Shown here piece by piece: positions 1 to 26,439 of a stretch of 52,563 nucleotides of DNA. Below the pieces are notes generated by a model that saw only the letters and a program-made list of their open reading frames with translations, did no database searches and was not told where the DNA came from. The translations under genes were made by a program, and so were the position numbers. The DNA is taken from positions 1 to 52,563 of the IMG/VR virus record IMGVR_UViG_2802428818_000001; one strand, written 5' to 3'. The DNA comes from a virus. Taxonomy: Duplodnaviria > Heunggongvirae > Uroviricota > Caudoviricetes. Within the stretch, counting starts at the first letter, position 1. Each line of letters opens with the position of its first letter.

Positions 1-42
1 GTTGCGGTGAGACTTGGTGATTGTCGCTGGTGTGTTCTGCAT
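1..42 (-). CDS. 5' end of a gene truncated by the window edge (MQNTPATITKSHRN...)
   Basis: ATG at 42 with AAGGA SD-like motif upstream, just downstream of the palindrome at 68-91. Confidence 0.5.
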   Translation of the reverse strand, partial: MQNTPATITKSHRN

Positions 43-70
43 GATCCGTCCTTTGTCATGTCTTAACCGA

Positions 71-88
71 TCAGTCAATATTGACTGA
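71..88. promoter_or_regulatory. 18-bp palindrome, copy 1 (extends to a perfect 24-bp palindrome at 68-91)
   Basis: TCAGTCAATATTGACTGA. Confidence 0.85.
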
Positions 89-158
89 TCGCGATGGAGA
101 AAAGAAAAGCGACCCAGGGCCTATTCCGGGTCGCCGGTGTTAAACCAGGTGGGCCTGG

Positions 159-563
159 CTATTCGCTGAATGCCTTGATGACAGCGGCGCGCTGGGCGTC
201 GTTGATCTTCGGATCACGATTATCCGTTGCTTCACGGATGACGCCGAGGATCTCGACTTCGTTCGTGCTGCAAATGAAGTCGAGCATCCGTGCCGACTCC
301 TTGTCATCCGACATGAACTGCTCGAGGGCGAGCCGGAAGAGGAAGAGAGGGTCGACGTCGATCGCGCGGGCAAGCTGGGCCACGCGGTCAAGTGGCAGCT
401 TGGCATCGCCCTTCTTGATCATCGTGACCATGTTCGATTGTGTCCAGCCGGCTGCTTGCGCAATCTCGCGGTGGGACTTGTTGACCTTCTGGTCAATATG
501 CTTATCCAGAAAACGCGCGACCTTCGTATTAGCGTAGGGGCGGACATACGTAGTAGTGGACAT
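159..563 (-). CDS. XRE/Cro-C1-type HTH transcriptional regulator (candidate phage repressor)
   Basis: SHREIAQAAGWTQSNMVTMIKKGDAKLPLDRVAQLARAI is a typical XRE HTH signature. Confidence 0.8.
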   Translation of the reverse strand: MSTTTYVRPYANTKVARFLDKHIDQKVNKSHREIAQAAGWTQSNMVTMIKKGDAKLPLDRVAQLARAIDVDPLFLFRLALEQFMSDDKESARMLDFICSTNEVEILGVIREATDNRDPKINDAQRAAVIKAFSE

Positions 564-691
564 TAACTTAAAACCTTTCTTCCTTGACCTCTGTTTTATT
601 TGTCACTAACAGCGTTTTCTTGTTTTCTGCTGTATAGATAGCGAAGCGGTCATGGGATATCACAATTTCTTTTTGGCAAACTTTGCTGTAG

Positions 692-709
692 TAAGTCAAT
701 ACCGATTGA
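692..709. promoter_or_regulatory. 18-bp palindrome, copy 2 (degenerate)
   Basis: TAAGTCAATACCGATTGA, upstream of the XRE regulator. Confidence 0.6.
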
Positions 710-949
710 GCGAAAAATGATTACGAATCCTTCACGTTAGGCATTTTGCCGACTCAACCCAAGGATTCGTAGGGGTTCCAGCGGTTTAAAATATCCGAAA
801 CGCAACCAAATTTTAGCTCACGTAAAAGTGGCATAATGTATTTTATGGAACTTAAGCGGGTGGTTTGAGTAAGTATTAACCACAAGGGTTGCCAAATCAG
901 CAGAATCGGTGTCACTTGTTGCGAGCAATGTGCAAGGAGATTCGCGTTA

Positions 950-1144
950 ATGTCTTCGGCTCAAAGAATGGCTGAGCACCGTGAGCGTCGCAAGCGGGAG
1001 GGAATGTCTATGGCTACCATCTGGCTTACCAAAGAGGATACCGAGAAGCTGGGCAGGTTCATGGCCGAACGGAAGATTGAATCCAAGCAGGAAGCCATAC
1101 AGGCTGCATTGCGCACGACATTTGAAAAAGAAACGGCAAACTGA
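950..1144 (+). CDS. Small ribbon-helix-helix (CopG/antitoxin-like) DNA-binding protein
   Basis: AAGGAG SD; basic N-helix followed by ATIWLTKEDTEKL..F..ERKIESKQEAIQAAL (beta-helix-helix pattern). Confidence 0.6.
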   Translation: MSSAQRMAEHRERRKREGMSMATIWLTKEDTEKLGRFMAERKIESKQEAIQAALRTTFEKETAN

Positions 1145-1148
1145 AACG

Positions 1149-1183
1149 TAAAAACCCCGGAAGCGGTCAACTTCCAGGGTCTT
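1149..1183. terminator. Intrinsic terminator, probably bidirectional (stronger on - strand)
   Basis: AAAAA-CCCCGGAAG-cggtcaa-CTTCCAGGG-tcttt hairpin with U-tract on the - strand. Confidence 0.65.
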
Positions 1184-1294
1184 TGATTTAGAAAGGATAA
1201 CAGCAGAGAACCGATCAAGGCCCTCTAGGTCGCCAAACCTTCTGCGCCGTCATAACCACGAATCGGTTTTCCCATGTTTCCTTCTAGCTGTCAA
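1149..1294 (-). ncRNA. Candidate counter-transcribed RNA (ctRNA) controlling repC, including its -35 box
   Basis: TTGACA on - strand at 1289-1294; AGGT-CGCCAA-ACCT hairpin at 1227-1240 (UUGGCG loop on antisense strand); terminator at 1149-1183; position matches repABC ctRNAs. -10 box unclear. Confidence 0.5.
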
Positions 1295-1310
1295 CGCTCC
1301 CTCGGGAGCG
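1295..1310 (+). promoter_or_regulatory. S-element-like hairpin in repC leader
   Basis: CGCTCCC-tc-GGGAGCG perfect inverted repeat 35 nt upstream of the repC start. Confidence 0.45.
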
Positions 1311-1345
1311 AACGGAGAAGATTTGCCTCATTTTGAGGACTCTAC

Positions 1346-2455
1346 ATGCAAACCGGGGGTAACTTGGGCTGGCGTAAACTTGCGCCGCAGCCTCATACAT
1401 TTGAACAGCTCGACATTGAAGCCGACCGGCCCAAGCTTTACAAGGTAAAGAATCTTGCCGCTAGAGCATTGGGACTGTCTAAAAGCCAAATCGCGCTGCT
1501 GACTGCACTAATTTCTTACTACAAAGAGCCGGTCGCCGACCGACTGCTCGTCTGGCCTTCGAACGAAGCCTTGGAGAAATCCACCGGATACAGTGAACGT
1601 GCTATCCGATTCGCAATTCGAGACCTCATTTCCTCTGGTGTCTTACTTTCCAAGGACTCAGCCAATGGCAAGCGATTCGCGATTCGGACTAAGAGCGGTC
1701 AGATCCTTGACGCCTATGGATTCGATCTCTCCCCTCTCCTCGCTCGCGAAAAGGAGTTCAAGGATTCGATCGCCCGCCTCGATGCCGAGGAAGAGCTCCG
1801 CAAGCGTCAGCTCGACGAGATCACCATCTGCCGGCGTTCCGTGCAGGAAGCATTGCGCTCGATTCATGACCTCGGTGTGACCGTCGATACAGAGTCCACA
1901 GAAGAGCGTTTCGACCTTCTCCTAAGCCAGACACCGCGCCGGTCGCTCATTCGCGCTCCTGGGCCTCTCCTGGCCGAATGGCGCACACTGAAGGAAGACG
2001 TCGAACACCAATATCATACCGCCTGTGACGGCAATTCCTGCCGCCATATTGAGAACAACAACGAGATCCCTGAGCAGCCTTGTTCAAACGGCCAAGAAGA
2101 AATGGTTAGGGGCGAAACGGTCAACCTTGGCGATCTACGGGTGGCGTGCCCGGATGCGATCGAGCAGGCGGGTGAAATCCGAGCGGAAGGCGATCTTATT
2201 GCGGCCGCGGCGCGATTGCGGGGTGTTTATGGGACTCACCGGACGGCCTGGGAAGAGGCTTGCGAGGATCTCGGCCGGCCGCTCGCCGCGGTGACGTTCT
2301 TCTACGTGCTGCAGATGTTCGAGGATGACCAGCGCGGCCGGCGAACGCTCAATAATTTCGGCGGGTTCTTCAGGAGTTGGGCGCGCAAGATCGCGAACGG
2401 CGAGGCGAATCTCGCCCAGGAGATCCACACGATGAAGAAGAAGCGACGGCACTAA
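1346..2455 (+). CDS. repC: Plasmid replication initiator RepC (repABC family)
   Basis: N-terminal MQTG...GWRK, LLVWPSNEAL, ERAIRFAIRDL, KDSANGKRFAIR, YGFDLSPL, CRHIENN, C-terminal NFGGFFR; GAGG SD. Confidence 0.92.
   Translation: MQTGGNLGWRKLAPQPHTFEQLDIEADRPKLYKVKNLAARALGLSKSQIALLTALISYYKEPVADRLLVWPSNEALEKSTGYSERAIRFAIRDLISSGVLLSKDSANGKRFAIRTKSGQILDAYGFDLSPLLAREKEFKDSIARLDAEEELRKRQLDEITICRRSVQEALRSIHDLGVTVDTESTEERFDLLLSQTPRRSLIRAPGPLLAEWRTLKEDVEHQYHTACDGNSCRHIENNNEIPEQPCSNGQEEMVRGETVNLGDLRVACPDAIEQAGEIRAEGDLIAAAARLRGVYGTHRTAWEEACEDLGRPLAAVTFFYVLQMFEDDQRGRRTLNNFGGFFRSWARKIANGEANLAQEIHTMKKKRRH
1600..1770. other. Probable plasmid origin (oriV) inside repC
   Basis: Six GANTC sites (1608, 1655, 1674, 1681, 1719, 1763) in about 160 bp; repABC origins are known to lie within repC. 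Confidence 0.5.
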
Positions 2456-2482
2456 AAAAAGGGCAGCCCGTGAGAGCTGCCC
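2454..2482 (-). terminator. Intrinsic terminator of the leftward ligase operon
   Basis: GGGCAGC-ccgtgaga-GCTGCCC stem with a 7-A tract (U-tract on - strand). Confidence 0.8.
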
Positions 2483-2565
2483 AGTTGAAAGGAGACACAA
2501 TGACGAAACGGAGGGAACGTCGCTGTAACTATAGATAGTCAGTTTTCAGTCGGCTTTTCGAAAAA

Positions 2566-2979
2566 TCAGCAGACGTTTTCGAAATAGTCCTCGAGCAGCT
2601 CGTCGGTTTCGGGCGGGCTACCAACCAGAAGAGCCTTACTTTCGCTCTCCTCGCCGTCGGCCAGGATCTCGATTTCAGCATCGGTCTTGGCCGCAAGCCA
2701 GGCATCAATCCTCTTGAGGTCTCGGCGATGAAAATTCTCTCCGAGCCAAAGACCCATCAGGTGAAGAACCTGCGTCTCCGGCCGGTGACGATTAATCCCG
2801 CCGTTTGCGTAGGTGATTGCAAGGCACGCTCGCTTGATGCCGGGATAATGGTCGGCCGATTTGCAGACGATCATCGGCCCTTCTGCGCGCTTAATTCCAA
2901 CCAGAAGCGAAGCAGCAACGCTGGTGTCGAGGCCGTTCTTTGCAGCCTCGAGGATCATTTGTTCCGGCGACTTGCTCAT
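2566..2979 (-). CDS. Hypothetical protein
   Basis: 137 aa; ATGA overlap with the ligase stop codon; acidic C-terminus. Confidence 0.7.
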   Translation of the reverse strand: MSKSPEQMILEAAKNGLDTSVAASLLVGIKRAEGPMIVCKSADHYPGIKRACLAITYANGGINRHRPETQVLHLMGLWLGENFHRRDLKRIDAWLAAKTDAEIEILADGEESESKALLVGSPPETDELLEDYFENVC

Positions 2980-4508
2980 GCCGCTTCTCGCAGAGCTTCG
3001 CCCGCCTTGTCGTCGCGGAAGCGGACGAACCTCGGGTGACGGAGCGAGCCGTCAGGCGTCACCTCATTGAACTCGATTTCGATCATGCGGCCGAGGAGCT
3101 TCCATTGCTTCAGGTGGACGGTTGACGGATCGGTCGACCAGCCAGGCTTGAAACCGACCTTCGGATGAAGGCCGAGATCTGCGGCATCTTCGGTCCAGAG
3201 ATCCCAGAGCTCGTCGCGTTCATCGCTCGACCAGCCACCACCGACGCGCACCTCGACACCCTTATGATCGACAATGACGCCGCCCAGCCGATCCTCGTTC
3301 TCGGCGTTCTCCTCACCGGTGTAGAAGCCGACGATGAAGAGGTCGATGGTTTCTTCGGGCTTGATCTTCAGCCAGACGTGCGACTTCTTCTTCTCGTAGG
3401 GGCCGTCATAGCTCTTGACCATCGCGCCTTCGAGACCCTTGGGTTTGCCGGTCTGCTTGTCGATCAGCACCTTGAGGAGCTCGGCTTCGACTTCCTTGTC
3501 GCCGCGGGCGATGTAGTTGGCGATCGTCTGGCTGATCAAACGCTCGTAGATCGCCTGGATCTCTTCGTAACTGTTCGCCTCATACGTCGGCGTCATGAAG
3601 ACCGGCGCGTTGGTGACAGCGCGGACCTCGCTGACGAAGGTCGAAAGCAACTCGCGGCGCGTCTCGTAGGGCACCTTGTAGGGCAGATTGCCGATGAAGC
3701 CGGAATACGGCAGCAGATCGAAGGACTCGAGCTGAGCGTCATAGGCCTTCTCGGACTTGCGCCGCATTGCGCCTGACGTTTCGAAGAGACCGTTGATCGC
3801 CTCGGTGTCGAGCACGAAGGTTGGATCCTCGTTATTGCCGTCGAAGAGCACCGTCACCACGTCGCGGTAATGATCGTCGACATCGTTGGTATCGGCGCCG
3901 GCCTTCATGTGACGGGCAGCCTTGAGCAGAGGCACTGCGAGATCCTGAAGCGCCGGAATGGCCTTGCCGGAGCGTGTGAAGAAAGCGCCCTTCCCTTCTT
4001 TCGCGATGAATGTCACGCGCATTCCGTCGAGCTTCGGCTCAACCGGGACCGGGAATTTGGTCACGCGCTTGTCTTCGTAGGGATGAGCGCGCATCACGCC
4101 GAACGACGGCAGGAAGCCTGGCAGCACGGATTCGATCGTCGTCGCGGCAATGCCGGCCTTCAGATCCTTGTTGAGGATCAGGAAGAGGATCTCGTTGCTG
4201 TCGGGATCAAGAGCCTTGAAGAGCATGTCAAGTTCGGCCTTGGCCGCATTGCCGGACAGCTCGCGGGTCGAAAGCTGGGTCAGAACGCGCAGAACAACGC
4301 CGTCGCTCAACGTGCAGTTATGCTCCGGAACGGACGTCGGCGCCTTCTTGACGGTCACGCCGTAGGTGATGAACGGATCATAGGTCCATTTCAGAATGAA
4401 CTTGCCGAGATCGTCGGCGAGCAGCTTCTCAAGACCTGCCTGCTTATCGAGACGGCCGGGCGAATTAGCGATTTCGCGAATAAGCGAAAGAGCTTCAGTG
4501 GCGTTCAA
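2976..4508 (-). CDS. lig: ATP-dependent DNA ligase
   Basis: Motif I EPKLDGMR, EGAMVK, WLKIKP, OB-fold C-terminus GSLRHPRFVRFRDDK. TTG start at 4508 preferred because of AAGGAG SD (ORF track starts at 4571). Confidence 0.93.
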   Translation of the reverse strand: MNATEALSLIREIANSPGRLDKQAGLEKLLADDLGKFILKWTYDPFITYGVTVKKAPTSVPEHNCTLSDGVVLRVLTQLSTRELSGNAAKAELDMLFKALDPDSNEILFLILNKDLKAGIAATTIESVLPGFLPSFGVMRAHPYEDKRVTKFPVPVEPKLDGMRVTFIAKEGKGAFFTRSGKAIPALQDLAVPLLKAARHMKAGADTNDVDDHYRDVVTVLFDGNNEDPTFVLDTEAINGLFETSGAMRRKSEKAYDAQLESFDLLPYSGFIGNLPYKVPYETRRELLSTFVSEVRAVTNAPVFMTPTYEANSYEEIQAIYERLISQTIANYIARGDKEVEAELLKVLIDKQTGKPKGLEGAMVKSYDGPYEKKKSHVWLKIKPEETIDLFIVGFYTGEENAENEDRLGGVIVDHKGVEVRVGGGWSSDERDELWDLWTEDAADLGLHPKVGFKPGWSTDPSTVHLKQWKLLGRMIEIEFNEVTPDGSLRHPRFVRFRDDKAGEALREAA

Positions 4509-4518
4509 GGGATTCTCC

Positions 4519-5109
4519 TTATGCTGCTGCGGCGTTGATTGCGGCTGCCATGTCGCCGGTCTTCGCTGCATTGTTGATGGCTTGGTTCTGGGTGGTCTTC
4601 TGCACGACCGTGCGCTTGCCTTCCGCCTCGAGCGGCCGGCGAGTGGTCGTGATGTTGGAGATCGAGCGCCTGGGCTCGACGAAGGCCGTTTCCTTGCCGC
4701 TGGCGCCTGGCGCTGTCTTCAGTTGCGCCTCGATACGGCCGCGCGTGGAATTGAGGAGCTCGCGCTCGTTATCCGTCAGCGCAAATCGGCCGAGCTCGCG
4801 GGGGATCGGGATGATATTCCTGATGCGCTCGAGGATATCGGCGTGCAGCTTGCCGACCTTTGGCTCTTTTGAGCCATAGTCATCGGAGACCGGCGTCCTC
4901 GAATAGTTGATCTTGGAGACGATCGCTGCGGCCGGGCACATGCCGCAATTCATTGCGGCCTGGCAGCCTTGCCGCTTCTCGACGGTCTTGCCCATCCAGA
5001 CGGCCTCACGCAGCGCCATACAAGCTGCCATCTTGGTATTGGCGTTGAAGACCGGGCAATTGAACTGAAATTCGTTCTCGCGCGCCAGTGTCAGATAGTG
5101 GGGCATCAA
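4519..5109 (-). CDS. Hypothetical Cys-rich protein
   Basis: 196 aa; CP...C...C.....C..CP cluster; coupled to neighbours by overlap. Confidence 0.75.
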   Translation of the reverse strand: MMPHYLTLARENEFQFNCPVFNANTKMAACMALREAVWMGKTVEKRQGCQAAMNCGMCPAAAIVSKINYSRTPVSDDYGSKEPKVGKLHADILERIRNIIPIPRELGRFALTDNERELLNSTRGRIEAQLKTAPGASGKETAFVEPRRSISNITTTRRPLEAEGKRTVVQKTTQNQAINNAAKTGDMAAAINAAAA

Positions 5110-5378
5110 AATCTCCCGAAGTTCTGGTGAATGGTCGTGTCGGGATGGGCCACATTAGCGTTCGGTCCATACCGCTTGCGATAGGCTCGCCGGATGATCA
5201 CCCGACAGCGCGCCTCTTCGATGGTTTTCAGTGTGAACTCGACAAACAGCGCCGGCATGTCACTGCGTTTGGATACCTGCTCGACCAGGCCGTGCTTGTC
5301 GGCGTCCCACTCTTTCAGGCGCATCTTGCGCACCTTGTTGAGGAGCTCGCCGGCGAAGGCGATCGTCTGCTTATCCAT
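5106..5378 (-). CDS. Hypothetical protein
   Basis: 90 aa; start/stop overlaps with both neighbours. Confidence 0.7.
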   Translation of the reverse strand: MDKQTIAFAGELLNKVRKMRLKEWDADKHGLVEQVSKRSDMPALFVEFTLKTIEEARCRVIIRRAYRKRYGPNANVAHPDTTIHQNFGRF

Positions 5379-5920
5379 CAGAACAAGCCGAAGCGCGGGT
5401 TGGACTTGTAGGTCTCGATCGCCACTTCCTGCTCAAGAGCCTTCTCGGCTTCCCTGGCCTTCGCGATCTCGGTTTTCGAATAGGTGCGCGCCGGAGGTTC
5501 GCCCAGATATCTGCCATCTTCGCTGAAGCGCGGCGGGGCGGCCTGCGCTGGCCGGCCAGTCGTATCCATATCGGGCAGAACGTGATTGAGAGCACCAGCC
5601 GGGATCTGCGGCCAGACAGCAGGACCGAATGCCATGCGCAGGTCGCTCTCGCTGCTGATCTGTTTGATCTGCGAGGATTTACTCACATAGCCCTTGCCGA
5701 GCTTGGACTGGACGAGCTTGTCAAACTCCTGCTCGGCCTTCGCCTGGATCGCAAACTTCTCGATCTTGAAGTCACCGATTTTGCCGATCTTACCCCAGCG
5801 GCGAACGATGATCGCCATGCCGTCAGGATTGATCAGGAGCGAAACGTTGTAGTGCTTGTTCGTGCGGTTGCCATCCGAGCATTCGAGCGCATAGTGCGCG
5901 AAATCAAGGGGAAAACTCAT
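5378..5920 (-). CDS. WGR-domain protein
   Basis: NKHYNVSLL...IVRRWGKIG...A..EFDKLVQSKLGKGY is the WGR pattern. Confidence 0.8.
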   Translation of the reverse strand: MSFPLDFAHYALECSDGNRTNKHYNVSLLINPDGMAIIVRRWGKIGKIGDFKIEKFAIQAKAEQEFDKLVQSKLGKGYVSKSSQIKQISSESDLRMAFGPAVWPQIPAGALNHVLPDMDTTGRPAQAAPPRFSEDGRYLGEPPARTYSKTEIAKAREAEKALEQEVAIETYKSNPRFGLF

Positions 5921-5976: not shown

Positions 5977-5994
5977 TAAGTAAATATTGACTTA
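5977..5994. promoter_or_regulatory. 18-bp palindrome, copy 3
   Basis: TAAGTAAATATTGACTTA. Confidence 0.85.
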
Positions 5995-5998
5995 GCCG

Positions 5999-7150
5999 TC
6001 AAGATCCCTGTGAAGACTTTTTCGCCTGCTCGACCTTCCATTTGGCTTCGTCAGCGGCGAACGGATTGCGCAGGCGCCACCTCACATCGAGGGCCGGCGT
6101 CCACAGGGCGGCTGAATAGTAGGCCTTGCGCACAACCTCGCCGAGGACTTCGTTCGGGTCTTTGCGGAACGGCAGAAGCGCGATGCGCGCCTTCAGGCCG
6201 ATCGATGTGAGGAGCTTGGCTGCGTCGAGCGCTGCGATCAGCGCCTTCGTCTCACCGTCCCACATGATCGTCACCGTCTTCACCCCTCCCCTCTTCAGTT
6301 GAAGGAAGCGGCCGAGCTGGTCGTCGCCGGTCGCCGAGCCGTAGGACAGATGCTTGCCGAAGGAGCCGACGGCGACGATCCGGCGCAGATCGACCTCTTC
6401 GTCGAAGGCGATCTTGATCGCTGCAACGTCGAAGAAGCCTTCACCCATCACCACTTCGTCGGTGAGCTGGACATTTTGTCCGTTGAGCAGGAACTTGCCG
6501 GTGCCTGGGAGGCCCTTCGGAAAGAGATATTTGCGCTCGACATACTGGGCAGCCTCGCCAACTGTCAGGTCACGCCCTTGGAAGGTTTTCAGTGTGCCAT
6601 CAAGGTCATAGACGGGAATGATAACCCGATTTGAGAACCACTGTTGTTGCGGCGCGCCCTGATCATCGAAGCACGGCCAGAAGCCATACTGGCAATATCT
6701 GAGGCCGAAATATTTGGCATACTCGCCGGTGATGCCGCGGTTCTCGAGATAGACCAGGTTCTCCCCGTCGGCCGTCGGCAGCTCGTCGGAGTAAGGCAGC
6801 TTCACCTCGCCATGATCGACAGCGACGGTCGTCATGCGCTTCGGGCGCCAGCCCTGCTCACGCATGATCTCCTTGCACTTCTCGATAGTCTCGCGCCAGT
6901 TGTCGTAGCCGAAGTGCAGCTTGACGAACTTCGCCTTGTTGAAGGTCTGGTTGCAGACGAAGCAGTTACCCTGCCCCGTATCGGCGTTCAGATAAACGCG
7001 TGATCGGCCGTCGCCGCAGTCCGGGCAATATTTGGCGTTGATCTGCATGCCGGAAGAGCCGCGGCCCATCTTGTAGGGCAGGCTCTCCTGGTCGAAGAGA
7101 AACTCGAGGTCGAGGTTCTCGGTGATCTCCTGGAAGATATTGTCGCTCAC
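5999..7150 (-). CDS. DNA primase (Zn-finger + Toprim)
   Basis: CPDC...CFVC zinc finger, YLENRGI, RVIIPV, EGFFDV, WDGE Toprim motifs. Confidence 0.88.
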   Translation of the reverse strand: MSDNIFQEITENLDLEFLFDQESLPYKMGRGSSGMQINAKYCPDCGDGRSRVYLNADTGQGNCFVCNQTFNKAKFVKLHFGYDNWRETIEKCKEIMREQGWRPKRMTTVAVDHGEVKLPYSDELPTADGENLVYLENRGITGEYAKYFGLRYCQYGFWPCFDDQGAPQQQWFSNRVIIPVYDLDGTLKTFQGRDLTVGEAAQYVERKYLFPKGLPGTGKFLLNGQNVQLTDEVVMGEGFFDVAAIKIAFDEEVDLRRIVAVGSFGKHLSYGSATGDDQLGRFLQLKRGGVKTVTIMWDGETKALIAALDAAKLLTSIGLKARIALLPFRKDPNEVLGEVVRKAYYSAALWTPALDVRWRLRNPFAADEAKWKVEQAKKSSQGS

Positions 7151-8514
7151 ACGCGCCCCATGACCTTTGTGAGGAACTTGAGCTTCTCGCGGTCCTGTCG
7201 GATGAGAAGCGAGAAATTGTCCTCGGTGTTACGGGATGCGACCCAGGTCAGACGGGCCTCGCCAGACTTCTTCTCGGCCTCGGTCGCGTTGATGGCGATC
7301 ACCACGTCGGCGGTTCGGATCTTGTTGAAGTCCTCGGCGACGTCGGTCATCTTGGCCGTGTGAGCAGCCGCACCGGAACGGTTCGTCTGCGTTGCTGTCA
7401 GCAGCGCCAGATCTTCTTCATAGGCGATCGCGCGCAGGTCGACGTAGATGGCGCGCAGATTGTCGATCATGTTGTCGCTGCGATAGTTCGCAGCCATGAT
7501 GTCAGCGTAGTCCACGGTCAGCAGGTCGAGGATGATACCTTCGGAGCGCCAGCGCTCGAGGATGCGCTTGATGTGATCGGGCTTGAGGGTGCCGGACGCA
7601 TAGTCATTGATGATCAGCGTGCCGGCCTTGGCTTCAGCGGCCTGGATCTTGCGCATGACGGTCTGCGGGTCGTCCTTGAGGAGCCGCATCGCGGTGTCGG
7701 AGACGTTCGCGTCGAGACGGTCGGCGATGATCGACCTGGACACTTCAAGCGAAAGATACGCGGTGTGATAGCCGAGCAGCGCTGCGTTCTTGGTGAACTC
7801 GCCAAGTGAGAGGGACTTGCCGGCCTTCGCCGCACCCATCATCAGCGACATTTCGCGACGGCCCCAGCCGTTGTGGTAGAGGTAGCTGTCAATCTCGCTG
7901 TAGCCCGTCGAGATCCCGCGCTTGACGATCTTGCCGGCCTTCCAGTCCTCGCGGATCTGGGTGCGGTTCACGATCTCCTTGAAATAGTGATAGTCGCCCT
8001 CGTCGGTTTGCAGACCGACAGCGAGCGCTGCCTTTTGCAGCTTCTCGATGCCAGCAAAGTCACCCCGCTGAAGCAGCTCGACGCTCTTCAGGATCGCCTG
8101 CTCCATTGCCTGGAACTTTGCAAAGTCGGAGACCTTCTCGGCGACATAGGACGAGTTCGAAAGATCTGTCTTCATGACGTCACGGATCGCGATCTTGATC
8201 TCGGTCAGCGCGTCGTCGCGGATACGCTTCTTGGCCTTCTCGTCCTTGAGGATCTGGGTGAGGATGCGCAGATCCGGCACGGACTTGTGCACCTGCAGGT
8301 GGTTCTTGATCAGGCTGATAAGCTGGCCATGGGCGTCGTTGGCGAAGTAGGCCGGGTCGATCAGATCCTTGGTGCGGTTGGCGAACTGCGTGTCGCGCAT
8401 GAACAGCGCCAAGGTCTTCTTCTGGAAGCCTTCATCGAAGTCCCACTTCGGCGCTTCCTGCTCGGCGATTTCTTCGTCGTGATCTTCTGCGATCGCTGCG
8501 GCTGCCTGAGACAT
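7147..8514 (-). CDS. dnaB: Replicative DnaB-like helicase
   Basis: Walker A GAAKAGKS, LSLEVS, VDYADIM, TATQTNR, ASRN. Confidence 0.88.
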   Translation of the reverse strand: MSQAAAAIAEDHDEEIAEQEAPKWDFDEGFQKKTLALFMRDTQFANRTKDLIDPAYFANDAHGQLISLIKNHLQVHKSVPDLRILTQILKDEKAKKRIRDDALTEIKIAIRDVMKTDLSNSSYVAEKVSDFAKFQAMEQAILKSVELLQRGDFAGIEKLQKAALAVGLQTDEGDYHYFKEIVNRTQIREDWKAGKIVKRGISTGYSEIDSYLYHNGWGRREMSLMMGAAKAGKSLSLGEFTKNAALLGYHTAYLSLEVSRSIIADRLDANVSDTAMRLLKDDPQTVMRKIQAAEAKAGTLIINDYASGTLKPDHIKRILERWRSEGIILDLLTVDYADIMAANYRSDNMIDNLRAIYVDLRAIAYEEDLALLTATQTNRSGAAAHTAKMTDVAEDFNKIRTADVVIAINATEAEKKSGEARLTWVASRNTEDNFSLLIRQDREKLKFLTKVMGRV

Positions 8515-8533: not shown

Positions 8534-8551
8534 TCAATCAATATTTACTGA
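8534..8551. promoter_or_regulatory. 18-bp palindrome, copy 4
   Basis: TCAATCAATATTTACTGA. Confidence 0.85.
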
Positions 8552-8634: not shown

Positions 8635-9378
8635 CTATTGGATATAGCGATGGACGCGTTCGACCAGATCTGGATCAAAGCGGCTCTCGACCTTGGCGAG
8701 CGGCAGCCGGTTCTGATTGATGAACTGGGCGAGCACATACCAAGGATTTCCCCTGAGTGCTGCCTGCTTGAACAGCCATTCGTGATAGTCGTCCTGATGG
8801 GCGATGCCATCGTAGTTCTCGATCATGTAAGCGGGATCGTCCGACAGATAGAGGCGAGCCGCCTGCATTTCTTCCCACTTGGCGACGGTCTTCTCGACGT
8901 CTTCCTGCTTGTAGAGGTGCTGTGACTGCGGCAGGTGGTTCTGACCCCAGAAGCGCAGACGCAAGCCCATCACGGTGTGGATGTAGTCCTTGTAGGGCAT
9001 GCCGATCGCATCAGCCACCTGACGGCCGCGCCACATGCCGGAGAACTGCATCATGTGCTTTTCGCTAAGCTGGGCGAGACCCTTGAAGATCTCCTCGATC
9101 GACGGCACCTTGATGAACTTCGAGGCAGTCTTCGAGAACTCCACCGCGAAGTAGTCGCGATAGACCTCCCCAAAGGCCTCGATGTAATGACGGGTCGCCT
9201 GAAGCGGCGTCATCATGCGGTAGTCGAACCACTTGGAGCGAAAAAGCTCCGGGTCGATCGCCAGGAGCCTTTTGTCTATAAAGCGGAACGCGACCAGATC
9301 GTCTTCAATCGGGTCTGGTCGCGGCATGTCGTCAATTGCGGGCAGCACTTGCATCCAAAAATCTCTCGAGTCCTTCAC
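8635..9378 (-). CDS. Conserved phage hypothetical protein (replication-associated?)
   Basis: 247 aa with phage-like codon usage; directly upstream of dnaB; start uncertain (47-bp overlap with phoH). Confidence 0.7.
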   Translation of the reverse strand: MKDSRDFWMQVLPAIDDMPRPDPIEDDLVAFRFIDKRLLAIDPELFRSKWFDYRMMTPLQATRHYIEAFGEVYRDYFAVEFSKTASKFIKVPSIEEIFKGLAQLSEKHMMQFSGMWRGRQVADAIGMPYKDYIHTVMGLRLRFWGQNHLPQSQHLYKQEDVEKTVAKWEEMQAARLYLSDDPAYMIENYDGIAHQDDYHEWLFKQAALRGNPWYVLAQFINQNRLPLAKVESRFDPDLVERVHRYIQ

Positions 9379-10189
9379 GAGCTTCGTCGTCGTTGCTCAC
9401 TGAATAGCTCGAAATCTCTTGGTCTTCGTAGAGTTCGACAATTTTTTGAATAAGACCGTGCCGAACGATGTCTTCACGGCCGAACTCCACCACCGAAACT
9501 TCAGGCAACCGACGCAGAAGATGGATCGCTCTCGGCATGCCGGACTTGATGCCTTGGTCGATCTGCTTCAGGTCGCCATTGATGATGAACTTGGCGCCCT
9601 CGCCGATGCGCGTCAGCGCCATCTTGAACTCGGTATCGGTCGCGTTCTGCATTTCATCAAAGATCACCCAGGCGCGCTTCAGCGTGCGGCCGCGCATGAA
9701 GGCCAGCGGCACCGGAACGATGATTTCAGCCTCGATCAGATATTCATAGTTGGCCTGGCCGAATGCGTCGTGAAAAGCCTCCTCGAGCGGCGTCAGGTAG
9801 GGACCGAATTTCTCGTCCAGGTCGCCGGGCAGGAAGCCGAAGGAGCGCTCAACTTCGACGTTCGGGCGGGTGACATAAATCTTGTCGATCAGGCCTGCCT
9901 TATAGGCCTCGGCAGCCCGCTGGACGGCGAACCAGGTCTTGCCCGTGCCGGCCGGGCCAGTGCCAAAGATGATGTCGGACGACTTGATTGCGGCGTCATA
10001 GCGCTTCTGGCCGGCATTGAGCGCCTTCACTGGACCTTCGTGCTTCTCGGTGCGCGAGGGCTTGCGGCGATTGGTTTCATGTTCCTTCACGGCAGCAAGC
10101 AAATTGTCGTGCTTCGTGGGCTTCACAGAGGCGCCGCGGCGCTCCTGTCTTTGAGAGGACTTGGAGAAGCGGCGGGCCTGCTGGGACAT
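9332..10189 (-). CDS. phoH: PhoH-family ATPase
   Basis: GPAGTGKT, GFLPGDL, AFMRGRTL, DEMQN, LTRIGEG..IINGDLKQID, DIVRHGLI. Start at 10189 with GGAG SD. Confidence 0.93.
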   Translation of the reverse strand: MSQQARRFSKSSQRQERRGASVKPTKHDNLLAAVKEHETNRRKPSRTEKHEGPVKALNAGQKRYDAAIKSSDIIFGTGPAGTGKTWFAVQRAAEAYKAGLIDKIYVTRPNVEVERSFGFLPGDLDEKFGPYLTPLEEAFHDAFGQANYEYLIEAEIIVPVPLAFMRGRTLKRAWVIFDEMQNATDTEFKMALTRIGEGAKFIINGDLKQIDQGIKSGMPRAIHLLRRLPEVSVVEFGREDIVRHGLIQKIVELYEDQEISSYSVSNDDEAREGLERFLDASAARN

Positions 10190-10239
10190 TGGTTCACTCC
10201 TGAATGCGAATGACATCAGTTTACGCGAACAGGGTGCAG

Positions 10240-10257
10240 TAAGTAAATATTGATTTA
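10240..10257. promoter_or_regulatory. 18-bp palindrome, copy 5
   Basis: TAAGTAAATATTGATTTA. Confidence 0.85.
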
Positions 10258-13720: not shown

Positions 13721-13738
13721 TAAATCAATATTGATTGA
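13721..13738. promoter_or_regulatory. 18-bp palindrome, copy 6
   Basis: TAAATCAATATTGATTGA. Confidence 0.85.
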
Positions 13739-17532: not shown

Positions 17533-17550
17533 TAAATCAATATTTACTTA
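17533..17550. promoter_or_regulatory. 18-bp palindrome, copy 7
   Basis: TAAATCAATATTTACTTA. Confidence 0.85.
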
Positions 17551-19652: not shown

Positions 19653-19670
19653 TAAGTCAATATTGACTTA
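19653..19670. promoter_or_regulatory. 18-bp palindrome, copy 8
   Basis: TAAGTCAATATTGACTTA (perfect). Confidence 0.85.
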
Positions 19671-26421: not shown

Positions 26422-26439
26422 TAAATCAATATTGACTTA
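26422..26439. promoter_or_regulatory. 18-bp palindrome, copy 9
   Basis: TAAATCAATATTGACTTA. Confidence 0.85.

Follow-up and report, generated by a model that had tools for sequence, protein, structure and literature searches.

A RepC replicon in a Rhizobium-type phage of 116.6 kb with a probable plasmid state

What does a plasmid replication initiator do among the replication genes of a phage? The question is raised by positions 159-2455 of a 52,563-nt stretch of viral DNA (hereafter the window), which forms the first 52.6 kb of the 116,563-bp virus record IMGVR_UViG_2802428818_000001, window position 1 being the record start. Here a repC gene (1346-2455, plus strand) follows a small gene and a set of putative control elements. 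An earlier note, made from the letters of the window, had read the locus as belonging to a phage-plasmid lineage that took up a rhizobial replicon, and the occurrence of its relatives both as phages and as plasmids supports that reading. The element is most likely a 116.6-kb Rhizobium-type phage that also lives as a plasmid. We consider it highly probable that the locus is its module for replication in plasmid mode, and that the element is a temperate, non-integrating phage-plasmid of the RHEph10/pLM21S1 group, an alphaproteobacterial branch of the SSU5-like phage-plasmids.

RepC, the closed genome and its relatives

Membership in the RepC family was judged by an N-terminal RP-C and a C-terminal RP-C_C domain, a length of about 370-400 aa and scores above the curated cut-offs. 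The 369-aa product of repC showed both Pfam domains, RP-C (E 5e-40; 137.5 bits, cut-off 24.4) and RP-C_C (1.6e-11; 44.8 bits, cut-off 32.6), and scored 200.8 bits against the NCBIfam equivalog model NF040974 RepABC_RepC (cut-off 150). To the right follow genes for an ATP-dependent ligase (2976-4571), a WGR protein (5378-5920), a primase (5999-7150), a DnaB-like helicase (7147-8514) and PhoH (9332-10216), and beyond PhoH lie the tail, capsid and terminase genes. The domain matches and these neighbours bear out the earlier description of a clear RepC among phage replication genes. The amino acid identity of RepC was 74% to its counterpart in plasmid p5 of Pararhizobium qamdonense, 43% to that of phage RHEph10 and about 31% to sampled RepCs of Rhizobiaceae repABC operons.

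The record closes as a circle through an identical 95-bp overlap at its two ends, is rated 100% complete and contains no chromosomal flanks, so that the circularity which had been proposed as a check was found. No tyrosine or serine recombinase domain (Phage_integrase, Resolvase) was matched in the complete 116,563-bp record, and the lack of an integrase first remarked for the window therefore holds for the whole of it. The tail-sheath family gave no match, consistent with the siphovirus type previously assigned, and no tRNA genes were found in the genome.

The DNA flanking the module is about 80% identical at the nucleotide level to that of the plaque-forming Rhizobium phages RHEph10 (about 81%), RHph_Y2_11, Y2_17_1, N1_10, N1_15 and N2_6, and 74-81% identical to that of p5, a circular plasmid of 115,652 bp in a finished genome. 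For the large terminase, identity to a plaque-forming relative reaches 92%, and for the capsid protein, identity to p5 is 93%. Searches with single proteins against viral and genome contigs gave no relatives. The relatives share a common layout in which CobS, CobT, a small open reading frame (ORF) and a helix-turn-helix (HTH) gene are followed by a small ORF and repC, and then by ligase, WGR, primase and helicase genes. Circular plasmids of 117-119 kb with this layout were found in Shinella, Sinorhizobium (pLM21S1), Rhizobium beringeri (pRlX6) and two Methylobacterium strains, and long contigs with it in Ancylobacter (114 kb), Faunimonas (109 kb) and Chelativorans (70.5 kb). The backbone with its RepC slot thereby extends to Methylobacterium, Ancylobacter, Faunimonas and Chelativorans, and the genera span several families. 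Since plaque-forming phages and circular plasmids both belong to it, the lineage occurs as virions and as free plasmids alike, and it does so in several genera of Hyphomicrobiales.

The genes of the module are under purifying selection comparable to that on the ligase gene. The ratio of nonsynonymous to synonymous substitution (dN/dS) was 0.17 for repC (against p5), 0.065 for the small upstream gene and 0.07-0.11 for the HTH gene, with 0.15 for the ligase gene as a comparison. As a separate observation, repC of the 119-kb plasmid pRlX6 (locus L016, 3001-4147) is annotated as two overlapping ORFs, and translation of the whole span in a single frame meets seven stops; the cause may be a frameshift error in sequencing, or the replicon may be decaying in a member that persists as a plasmid.

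Predicted control and partition elements

In the spacer between the small gene and repC, an antisense RNA (ctRNA) of about 115 nt is predicted on the minus strand (about 1259 to 1145), ending in a terminator hairpin (1150-1184) followed by a U tail. Folding of 1145-1265 gave -46.2 kcal/mol (z -3.56) for the minus strand and -26.3 kcal/mol (z -0.31) for the plus strand. Its predicted promoter (1266-1294, minus strand) consists of a -35 element TTGACA (1294 to 1289), a 17-nt spacer and a weak -10 element GAAAAC (1271 to 1266), and a GANTC site at 1260-1264 coincides with the predicted start. The layout was compared in 17 loci comprising phage-plasmids, solo repC modules of large plasmids and classical repABC operons. 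In 17/17 loci the stop codon of the upstream gene adjoins a strong hairpin on the minus strand that has a U-rich tail, and a minus-strand (C/G)TTGAC lay 49-59 nt from the repC start in all except pAMS5a, which lacks TTGAC (16/17), usually followed after 17 nt by a (G/C/T)ATAA-like element. The same layout was seen in all 11 spacers of a smaller comparison. Across lineages the hairpin varies in sequence and keeps its pairing, with compensatory double changes in 8 of 13 pairs, and the frequent G.U pairs of the minus strand would be A.C mismatches if read on the plus strand. In the classical repABC loci the predicted ctRNA measured 60-64 nt, compared with published lengths of 55-59 nt, and the Rfam model ctRNA_p42d matched exactly the predicted place in a p42d-type locus (L018). 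The layout agrees with the control described for repABC and 'repC family' replicons, in which antisense RNA represses repC and sets incompatibility (PMC10194956, citing Izquierdo 2005).

Two hairpins can form in the repC leader (1295-1345, plus strand), one of 6 bp at 1295-1310 and a small one at 1326-1338, within which most of the Shine-Dalgarno sequence GAGGA (1335-1339) is enclosed. The folding z-score of the leader was -2.5 in the window; RHEph10 has an analogous hairpin enclosing its Shine-Dalgarno sequence, of different sequence, and other lineages were statistically weak. Within the predicted ctRNA we also observed a CGCCAA/UUGGCG hexaloop hairpin at 1227-1240 (CGCCAA on the plus strand), which on its own is no more stable than shuffled sequence. 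In p5 the loop is inverted and carried on a different stem (TTGGCG on the plus strand at 4205 of locus L006, within 4200-4215). Such loops would fit a sense/antisense kissing interaction, and are only suggestive of one.

The small gene (950-1144, plus strand), the first of the replicon operon, encodes a 64-aa protein. Its differences from the p5 homologue are nearly all synonymous, and for this reason, with a dN/dS of 0.065, we regard it as a real gene. The earlier note had named it a ribbon-helix-helix (RHH) gene, an assignment to be held with moderate confidence, as probable. A profile of nine homologues from the same position matched only RHH proteins in the Protein Data Bank (NikR N-terminal domain, E 0.008; ParD, E 0.0095; MazE9), with an alignment that covers the strand, helix A and the 'NRSEAI'-type start of helix B. 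An AlphaFold2 model (pLDDT 81) showed an N-terminal basic helix, an extended segment and helices at residues 28-40 and 46-63; in the monomer the strand is unpaired. The best Foldseek matches were MazE, NikR, CopG, ParD and Arc, none of them significant for so small a protein. The top profile and fold matches were thus all RHH proteins and all weak (E 0.008-0.3), while the single sequence scored below the Pfam cut-offs. A PHROG transcriptional regulator family matched at 9.7e-5, the homologues in pLM21S1, pRlX6, pRlX1 and RHph_X66 carry RHH/CopG annotation, and a word-based search with the protein returned four close homologues only. Profile and model together point to a probable RHH fold, and by analogy the protein is probably an autorepressor that stands in place of the repA-repB genes of repABC operons.

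No repA or repB lies adjacent to repC, as had been noted before. Linked repA/repB genes were considered and rejected: the upstream gene is that of the 64-aa RHH protein, and neither the ParA of the element nor the tested ParB_N protein matched any RepA or RepB model. That ParA is a type-Ib protein of 214 aa, encoded together with a 92-aa partner at genome positions 53834-54753, about 52 kb from repC, and two proteins with ParB_N domains are encoded near the terminase. The earlier label of 'repC-only' is accordingly true of the operon and not of the element, which has this separate ParA and its partner. The 16-bp palindromic parS of repABC plasmids (GGTNNGNGCNCNNACC) had no match in the 116.6-kb genome, and no 8-mers were shared between the region upstream of parA and the repC control region.

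The control region (564-949) is AT-rich (GC 0.37-0.46), contains five GANTC sites and separates the operon from a divergent gene (159-563, minus strand). The earlier note had delimited the ORFs of 159-2455 correctly and left this one unnamed. It belongs to the conserved phage backbone and encodes a 134-aa XRE-like HTH regulator, with a weak Pfam HTH_3 match, PHROG transcriptional regulator/repressor matches at 1.5e-5 and 1.3e-4 and homologues annotated as HTH or XRE; it is a candidate regulator of the prophage or of the replicon. Within the control region, an 11-bp inverted repeat (TACGAATCCTT / AAGGATTCGTA; 722-771, arms 722-732 and 761-771) has a GANTC in each arm and is a candidate operator for the RHH protein. 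The motif AAGGATTCG is also present in the control regions of p5 and RHEph10; it clusters locally and is not enriched over the window as a whole (15 matches, 15.8 expected). Nearer to the operon, a 35-nt block (886-920, plus strand) is almost invariant with respect to p5 amid diverged sequence. It holds TTGCCA (889-894), a 17-nt spacer with GAATC (903-907) and TCACTT (912-917), and is the candidate promoter of the operon. We also observed a close resemblance between the candidate promoter at 889-911 (TTGCCAAATCAGCAGAATCGG) and the ctRNA promoter predicted for the RHEph10 lineage (TTGACAAATCAGCGGTGATTCGG; locus L005, about 4260-4285, minus strand); each holds a GANTC in its spacer.

A further element of the control region is dispersed over the genome. 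This palindromic box (about 16-20 bp, core AGTCAATATTGACT) occurs at 31 sites, against 0.15 expected, and 29 of the 31 are intergenic, mostly 13-100 bp upstream of gene starts. Copies include a perfect 24-bp palindrome (68-91) inside the 95-bp overlap that closes the circle, the imperfect copy at 694-709 in the control region, and those at 5977-5994, 8534-8551, 10242-10257, 13721-13738, 17533-17548, 19653-19670 and 26422-26439. The box is conserved in RHEph10, N1_10 and p5, and was not found in the short stretches retrieved from the X66, Shinella, pLM21S1 and Methylobacterium relatives; where the HTH proteins of these relatives were compared, they proved more divergent. One regulator would seem to use the box as a dispersed operator or promoter element.

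The CcrM methylation motif GANTC occurs 162 times in the genome against about 427 expected (about 2.6-fold depleted), a deficit that suggests selection over long periods in hosts that bear CcrM. The sites that do occur are concentrated in the repC module (564-2100): of all 500-bp windows in the genome, the ten richest in the motif start at 1201-1651, and the next three fall in 564-949. Seven sites lie inside repC at 1590-1870 (24.9 per kb versus 1.39 per kb genome-wide), adjoining the part of the gene with the lowest GC content (0.49-0.53 at 1400-1700), and a further one overlaps the repC Shine-Dalgarno sequence. In p42d, oriV lies inside repC, and RepC is sufficient for replication and acts in cis (PMC3155836). 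GANTC clusters have been described in repABC promoters, antisense promoters, repE promoters and intragenic origins, and tied to CcrM/GcrA control of RepC in A. tumefaciens (PMC11514494). Because of the cluster in the window and of the published clusters at intragenic repABC origins, we regard about 1590-1870 as the candidate origin, on the model of p42d and of ori2 in A. tumefaciens.

Exchange of the replicon cassette

Comparison with RHEph10 and N1_10 delimited the module from its backbone. The nucleotide homology of about 80% ends at 709-719, just past the box copy at 694-709, which marks the left edge of the divergent segment. From there it cannot be detected through the small ORF and the spacer or, a short match near 1650-1750 excepted, for most of the initial 60% of repC. 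Homology returns over the final third of repC, at 69%, and from 2992 onward it is again about 80%. A terminator hairpin (2461-2482, minus strand) separates repC from the convergent leftward genes and is followed by a 137-aa ORF (2566-2979, minus strand) in a variable slot between repC and the ligase gene. This ORF has no Pfam or PHROG match and is missing from RHEph10, N1_10 and p5, where shorter unrelated ORFs occupy the slot. Since RepC is only 43% identical to that of RHEph10 while the flanks are about 80% identical, the sequences indicate that the replicon module is a swapped cassette, and that the window shares its RepC cassette lineage with p5 of P. qamdonense.

A maximum-likelihood tree of 24 RepCs, rooted at the midpoint and drawn from a small sample picked by similarity, was in line with such exchange. 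One clade (94/92) united the phage-plasmid RepCs of Rhizobiaceae, Ancylobacter and Chelativorans, and nested within it (100/99) was the solo RHH-repC of Rhizobium plasmids of 283-318 kb. The phage-plasmid RepCs of Methylobacterium and Faunimonas fell in a second clade together with megaplasmid and repABC RepCs, that of the M. oryzae element being a neighbour of a Methylobacterium megaplasmid RepC. Moreover, RHEph10 is nearer in its RepC to X66 and pLM21S1, whose backbones are more distant from its own, than to the window, whose backbone is closer. The cassettes have thus moved among phage-plasmids, and between these and ordinary plasmids, which fits the pattern of conserved phage genes and variable plasmid genes of Pfeifer et al.

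Two side observations concern large plasmids. In pNMS14P1 (542 kb; Methylobacterium sp. NMS14P; locus L022, 2975-6997) the order is unusual, namely small ORF, repC, repA, repB, and this RepC is the closest relative of a Methylobacterium phage-plasmid RepC. In pANAM02 of Bosea sp. (692 kb; locus L023, 1765-6570), a RepC of the same broad clade lies beside genes for a CHC2 zinc-finger protein and RtcB, and the locus may be a phage-plasmid remnant within a megaplasmid, RtcB being also encoded by phage-plasmids.

A broader proposal can be offered tentatively, as one that we hold possible and somewhat doubtful. In nature, stand-alone repC-family replicons may be carried and shuffled mainly by the SSU5-like phage-plasmids of Hyphomicrobiales, which would exchange whole RHH-ctRNA-RepC cassettes with each other and with resident plasmids and so give rise to new incompatibility types, and the GANTC-packed origin would put prophage replication under the CcrM/GcrA cell-cycle clock of the host. 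If true, no phage before it would be known in which methylation tied to the host cell cycle licenses replication in the plasmid state. The cassette boundaries enable the incompatibility of phage-plasmids that differ solely in the cassette to be compared, the predicted antisense RNA is directly testable for copy-number control, and the methylation-marked candidate origin offers a test of the coupling of prophage replication to the cell cycle.

Plasmid and lytic replication, and comparison with known systems

A scheme for the module can be proposed on these grounds. A promoter at about 889-917, in the AT-rich region, would drive a two-gene operon of the RHH gene and then repC. RepC would initiate theta replication within its own coding sequence, the best candidate being 1590-1870, and probably in cis, as p42d RepC does. 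The ctRNA (about 1259 to 1145, minus strand) would pair with the repC leader, lower repC expression and so set copy number and incompatibility, and the RHH protein would probably repress the operon promoter, as RepA and RepB do in repABC. The placing of the dense GANTC sites, which fall in the promoter, on the ctRNA start and in the candidate origin, suggests that CcrM methylation couples the module to the cell cycle of the host. Partition would be served by the unlinked small ParA cassette, and lytic replication by the phage helicase, primase, Pol III alpha-like polymerase and ligase. We infer a division of labour in which RepC serves maintenance and the phage replisome serves lytic growth. 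The genome encodes, besides the Pol III alpha-like polymerase, RecA-like, SbcCD-like and ribonucleotide reductase proteins. As a side observation, the polymerase is joined in one ORF (genome 107582-110995) to a C-terminal domain of the uracil-DNA-glycosylase (UDG) superfamily.

The roles assigned to RepC could be distributed otherwise. RepC might initiate lytic replication, as its main role or as an additional one, in the manner of lambda O, with the element effectively virulent and the plasmid records representing carrier states or defective derivatives. RepC does lie at one end of the block of replication genes, those that were examined include no other recognised initiator gene, PHROG models of O-like initiators match its winged HTH region weakly, and the RHEph10-type relatives were isolated as plaque formers. 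However, relatives are present as circular plasmids in at least six finished genomes and on long contigs in three further assemblies, the module has control features of low-copy plasmids (the predicted ctRNA and the GANTC cluster), and the genome has a ParA partition cassette; a lytic origin needs none of these. We therefore regard this explanation as unlikely, though the strongest of the alternatives. Less likely still is the opposite case, a defective plasmid-like prophage that forms no virions and for which RepC is just a plasmid replicon. The prophage pLM21S1 was not inducible by mitomycin C (PMC4447125), and the division of the pRlX6 repC into two ORFs suggests that some members may decay. 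Against such a case, the identity of the backbone to plaque-forming phages is about 80% throughout the replication region, the terminase and capsid protein keep the 92% and 93% identities given above to a plaque-forming relative and to p5, and in a record rated complete the genes examined are intact and under purifying selection. An integrating prophage in which repC is a captured passenger without a role in replication, the case that the earlier note had named as refuting its reading, appears very improbable, no point having been found in its favour, and was rejected: there is no recombinase in the complete genome, the assembly is circular without chromosomal flanks, the relatives are free circular plasmids, and repC and its control elements are conserved and under selection.

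Several points do weigh against a temperate phage-plasmid that replicates through this module. The element is known solely as a metagenomic virus contig. The failure of mitomycin C to induce pLM21S1 leaves room for defective members (PMC4447125), and for the RHEph10-type phages, isolated as plaque formers, stable lysogeny is undemonstrated in the literature consulted. A stand-alone replicon of the repC family has been reported to be unstable alone (PMC10194956). As for the control elements, the Rfam ctRNA and S-element models gave no match over 1-4000, and the -10 element of the predicted ctRNA promoter is weak. The Rfam result says little, since the models match only the p42d-type locus and also miss a Microvirga repABC operon. 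The low-GC tract within repC is modest (0.49-0.53), and only short scattered repeats and no iterons were found, p42d being likewise without iterons. The temperate, non-integrating phage-plasmid remains the reading that we favour.

The idea of a RepC phage-plasmid is already published. Dziewit et al. (2015) described pLM21S1 as a plasmid-like prophage with no integrase, a 'RepC-like replication system' and a partition module, found that it was related to RHEph10, and proposed the pair as archetypes of a new group (PMC4447125). Gunathilake et al. (2025) read B1VFA and V1VFA-S in the same way, with parA, parB and repC (PMC12509600). In Pfeifer et al. (2021), RHEph10 is an excluded outlier of the Acinetobacter AB community and pLM21S1 a known phage-plasmid (PMC7969092). 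The element joins the RHEph10/pLM21S1 group. Like these members and B1VFA and V1VFA-S, which range over 115-122 kb, it is free of an integrase and has an unlinked par module, and it shares with RHEph10 and pLM21S1 the order CobS-CobT-76aa-HTH / RHH-RepC / ligase-WGR-primase-DnaB-PhoH. Structural, lysis and replication genes, RepC, a par module and cobTS were all found here, without an integrase, in a genome within the size class of about 115-120 kb. For B1VFA and V1VFA-S siphophage morphology was seen by transmission electron microscopy. The present element differs from RHEph10 in carrying an RHH-ctRNA-RepC cassette of another lineage, with a predicted ctRNA of about 115 nt instead of about 80, and in the 137-aa ORF at 2566-2979, which is found only in the window.

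Among plasmid replicons, the module works like one of the 'repC family' (pRmeGR4a type), in which repC is unlinked to repAB and has upstream an antisense RNA gene that serves as negative regulator and incompatibility determinant; the likeness was seen in the organisation. The repC-family modules are reported to occur always on plasmids that also bear a repABC cluster (PMC10194956, citing Izquierdo 2005). The module of the window, in contrast, is the only plasmid-type replicon of its element, has an RHH gene upstream and lies in a phage genome. Homologous RHH-repC modules also occur on Rhizobium plasmids of 283-318 kb. With the repABC operons (Rhizobium etli p42d, Agrobacterium tumefaciens pTi and Ch2) it shares the RepC family, a ctRNA (here predicted) in the position of the repB-repC spacer, and GANTC clusters in the promoter, antisense promoter and repC; it differs from them in lacking repA, repB and parS, the 64-aa RHH gene standing in their place. 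A consequence for plasmid records is that non-mobilizable rhizobial 'plasmids' of about 110-120 kb with a solo repC are probably prophages.

At greater distance stand the SSU5/pHCM2/pMT1 and Acinetobacter AB groups, which are likewise non-integrating and of about 100-120 kb. Identities of 48-54% for the major capsid protein and of 37-41% for the DnaB-like helicase connect the element with about 950 plasmids of about 100-115 kb, which include pHCM2, plasmids of Yersinia pestis pMT1 size, SSU5-like plasmids of Klebsiella and E. coli, and Acinetobacter AB-type plasmids. The gene order is collinear as well, running from tail genes through a DnaB-like helicase and a primase-sized unannotated ORF to ligase. 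Given these matches and the collinearity, the comparison with SSU5 and pHCM2 that the earlier note had drawn proved right at the level of hallmark genes and gene order. The replicon types differ: pHCM2 is typed IncFIB and the Acinetobacter plasmid carries RepM, whereas the window has RepC with a predicted ctRNA. The host classes differ too, Alphaproteobacteria for the lineage of the window and Gammaproteobacteria for the SSU5 and AB groups. The element confirms that the phage-plasmid lifestyle reaches soil- and plant-associated Alphaproteobacteria, with the RepC replicon proper to that class replacing the enterobacterial ones.

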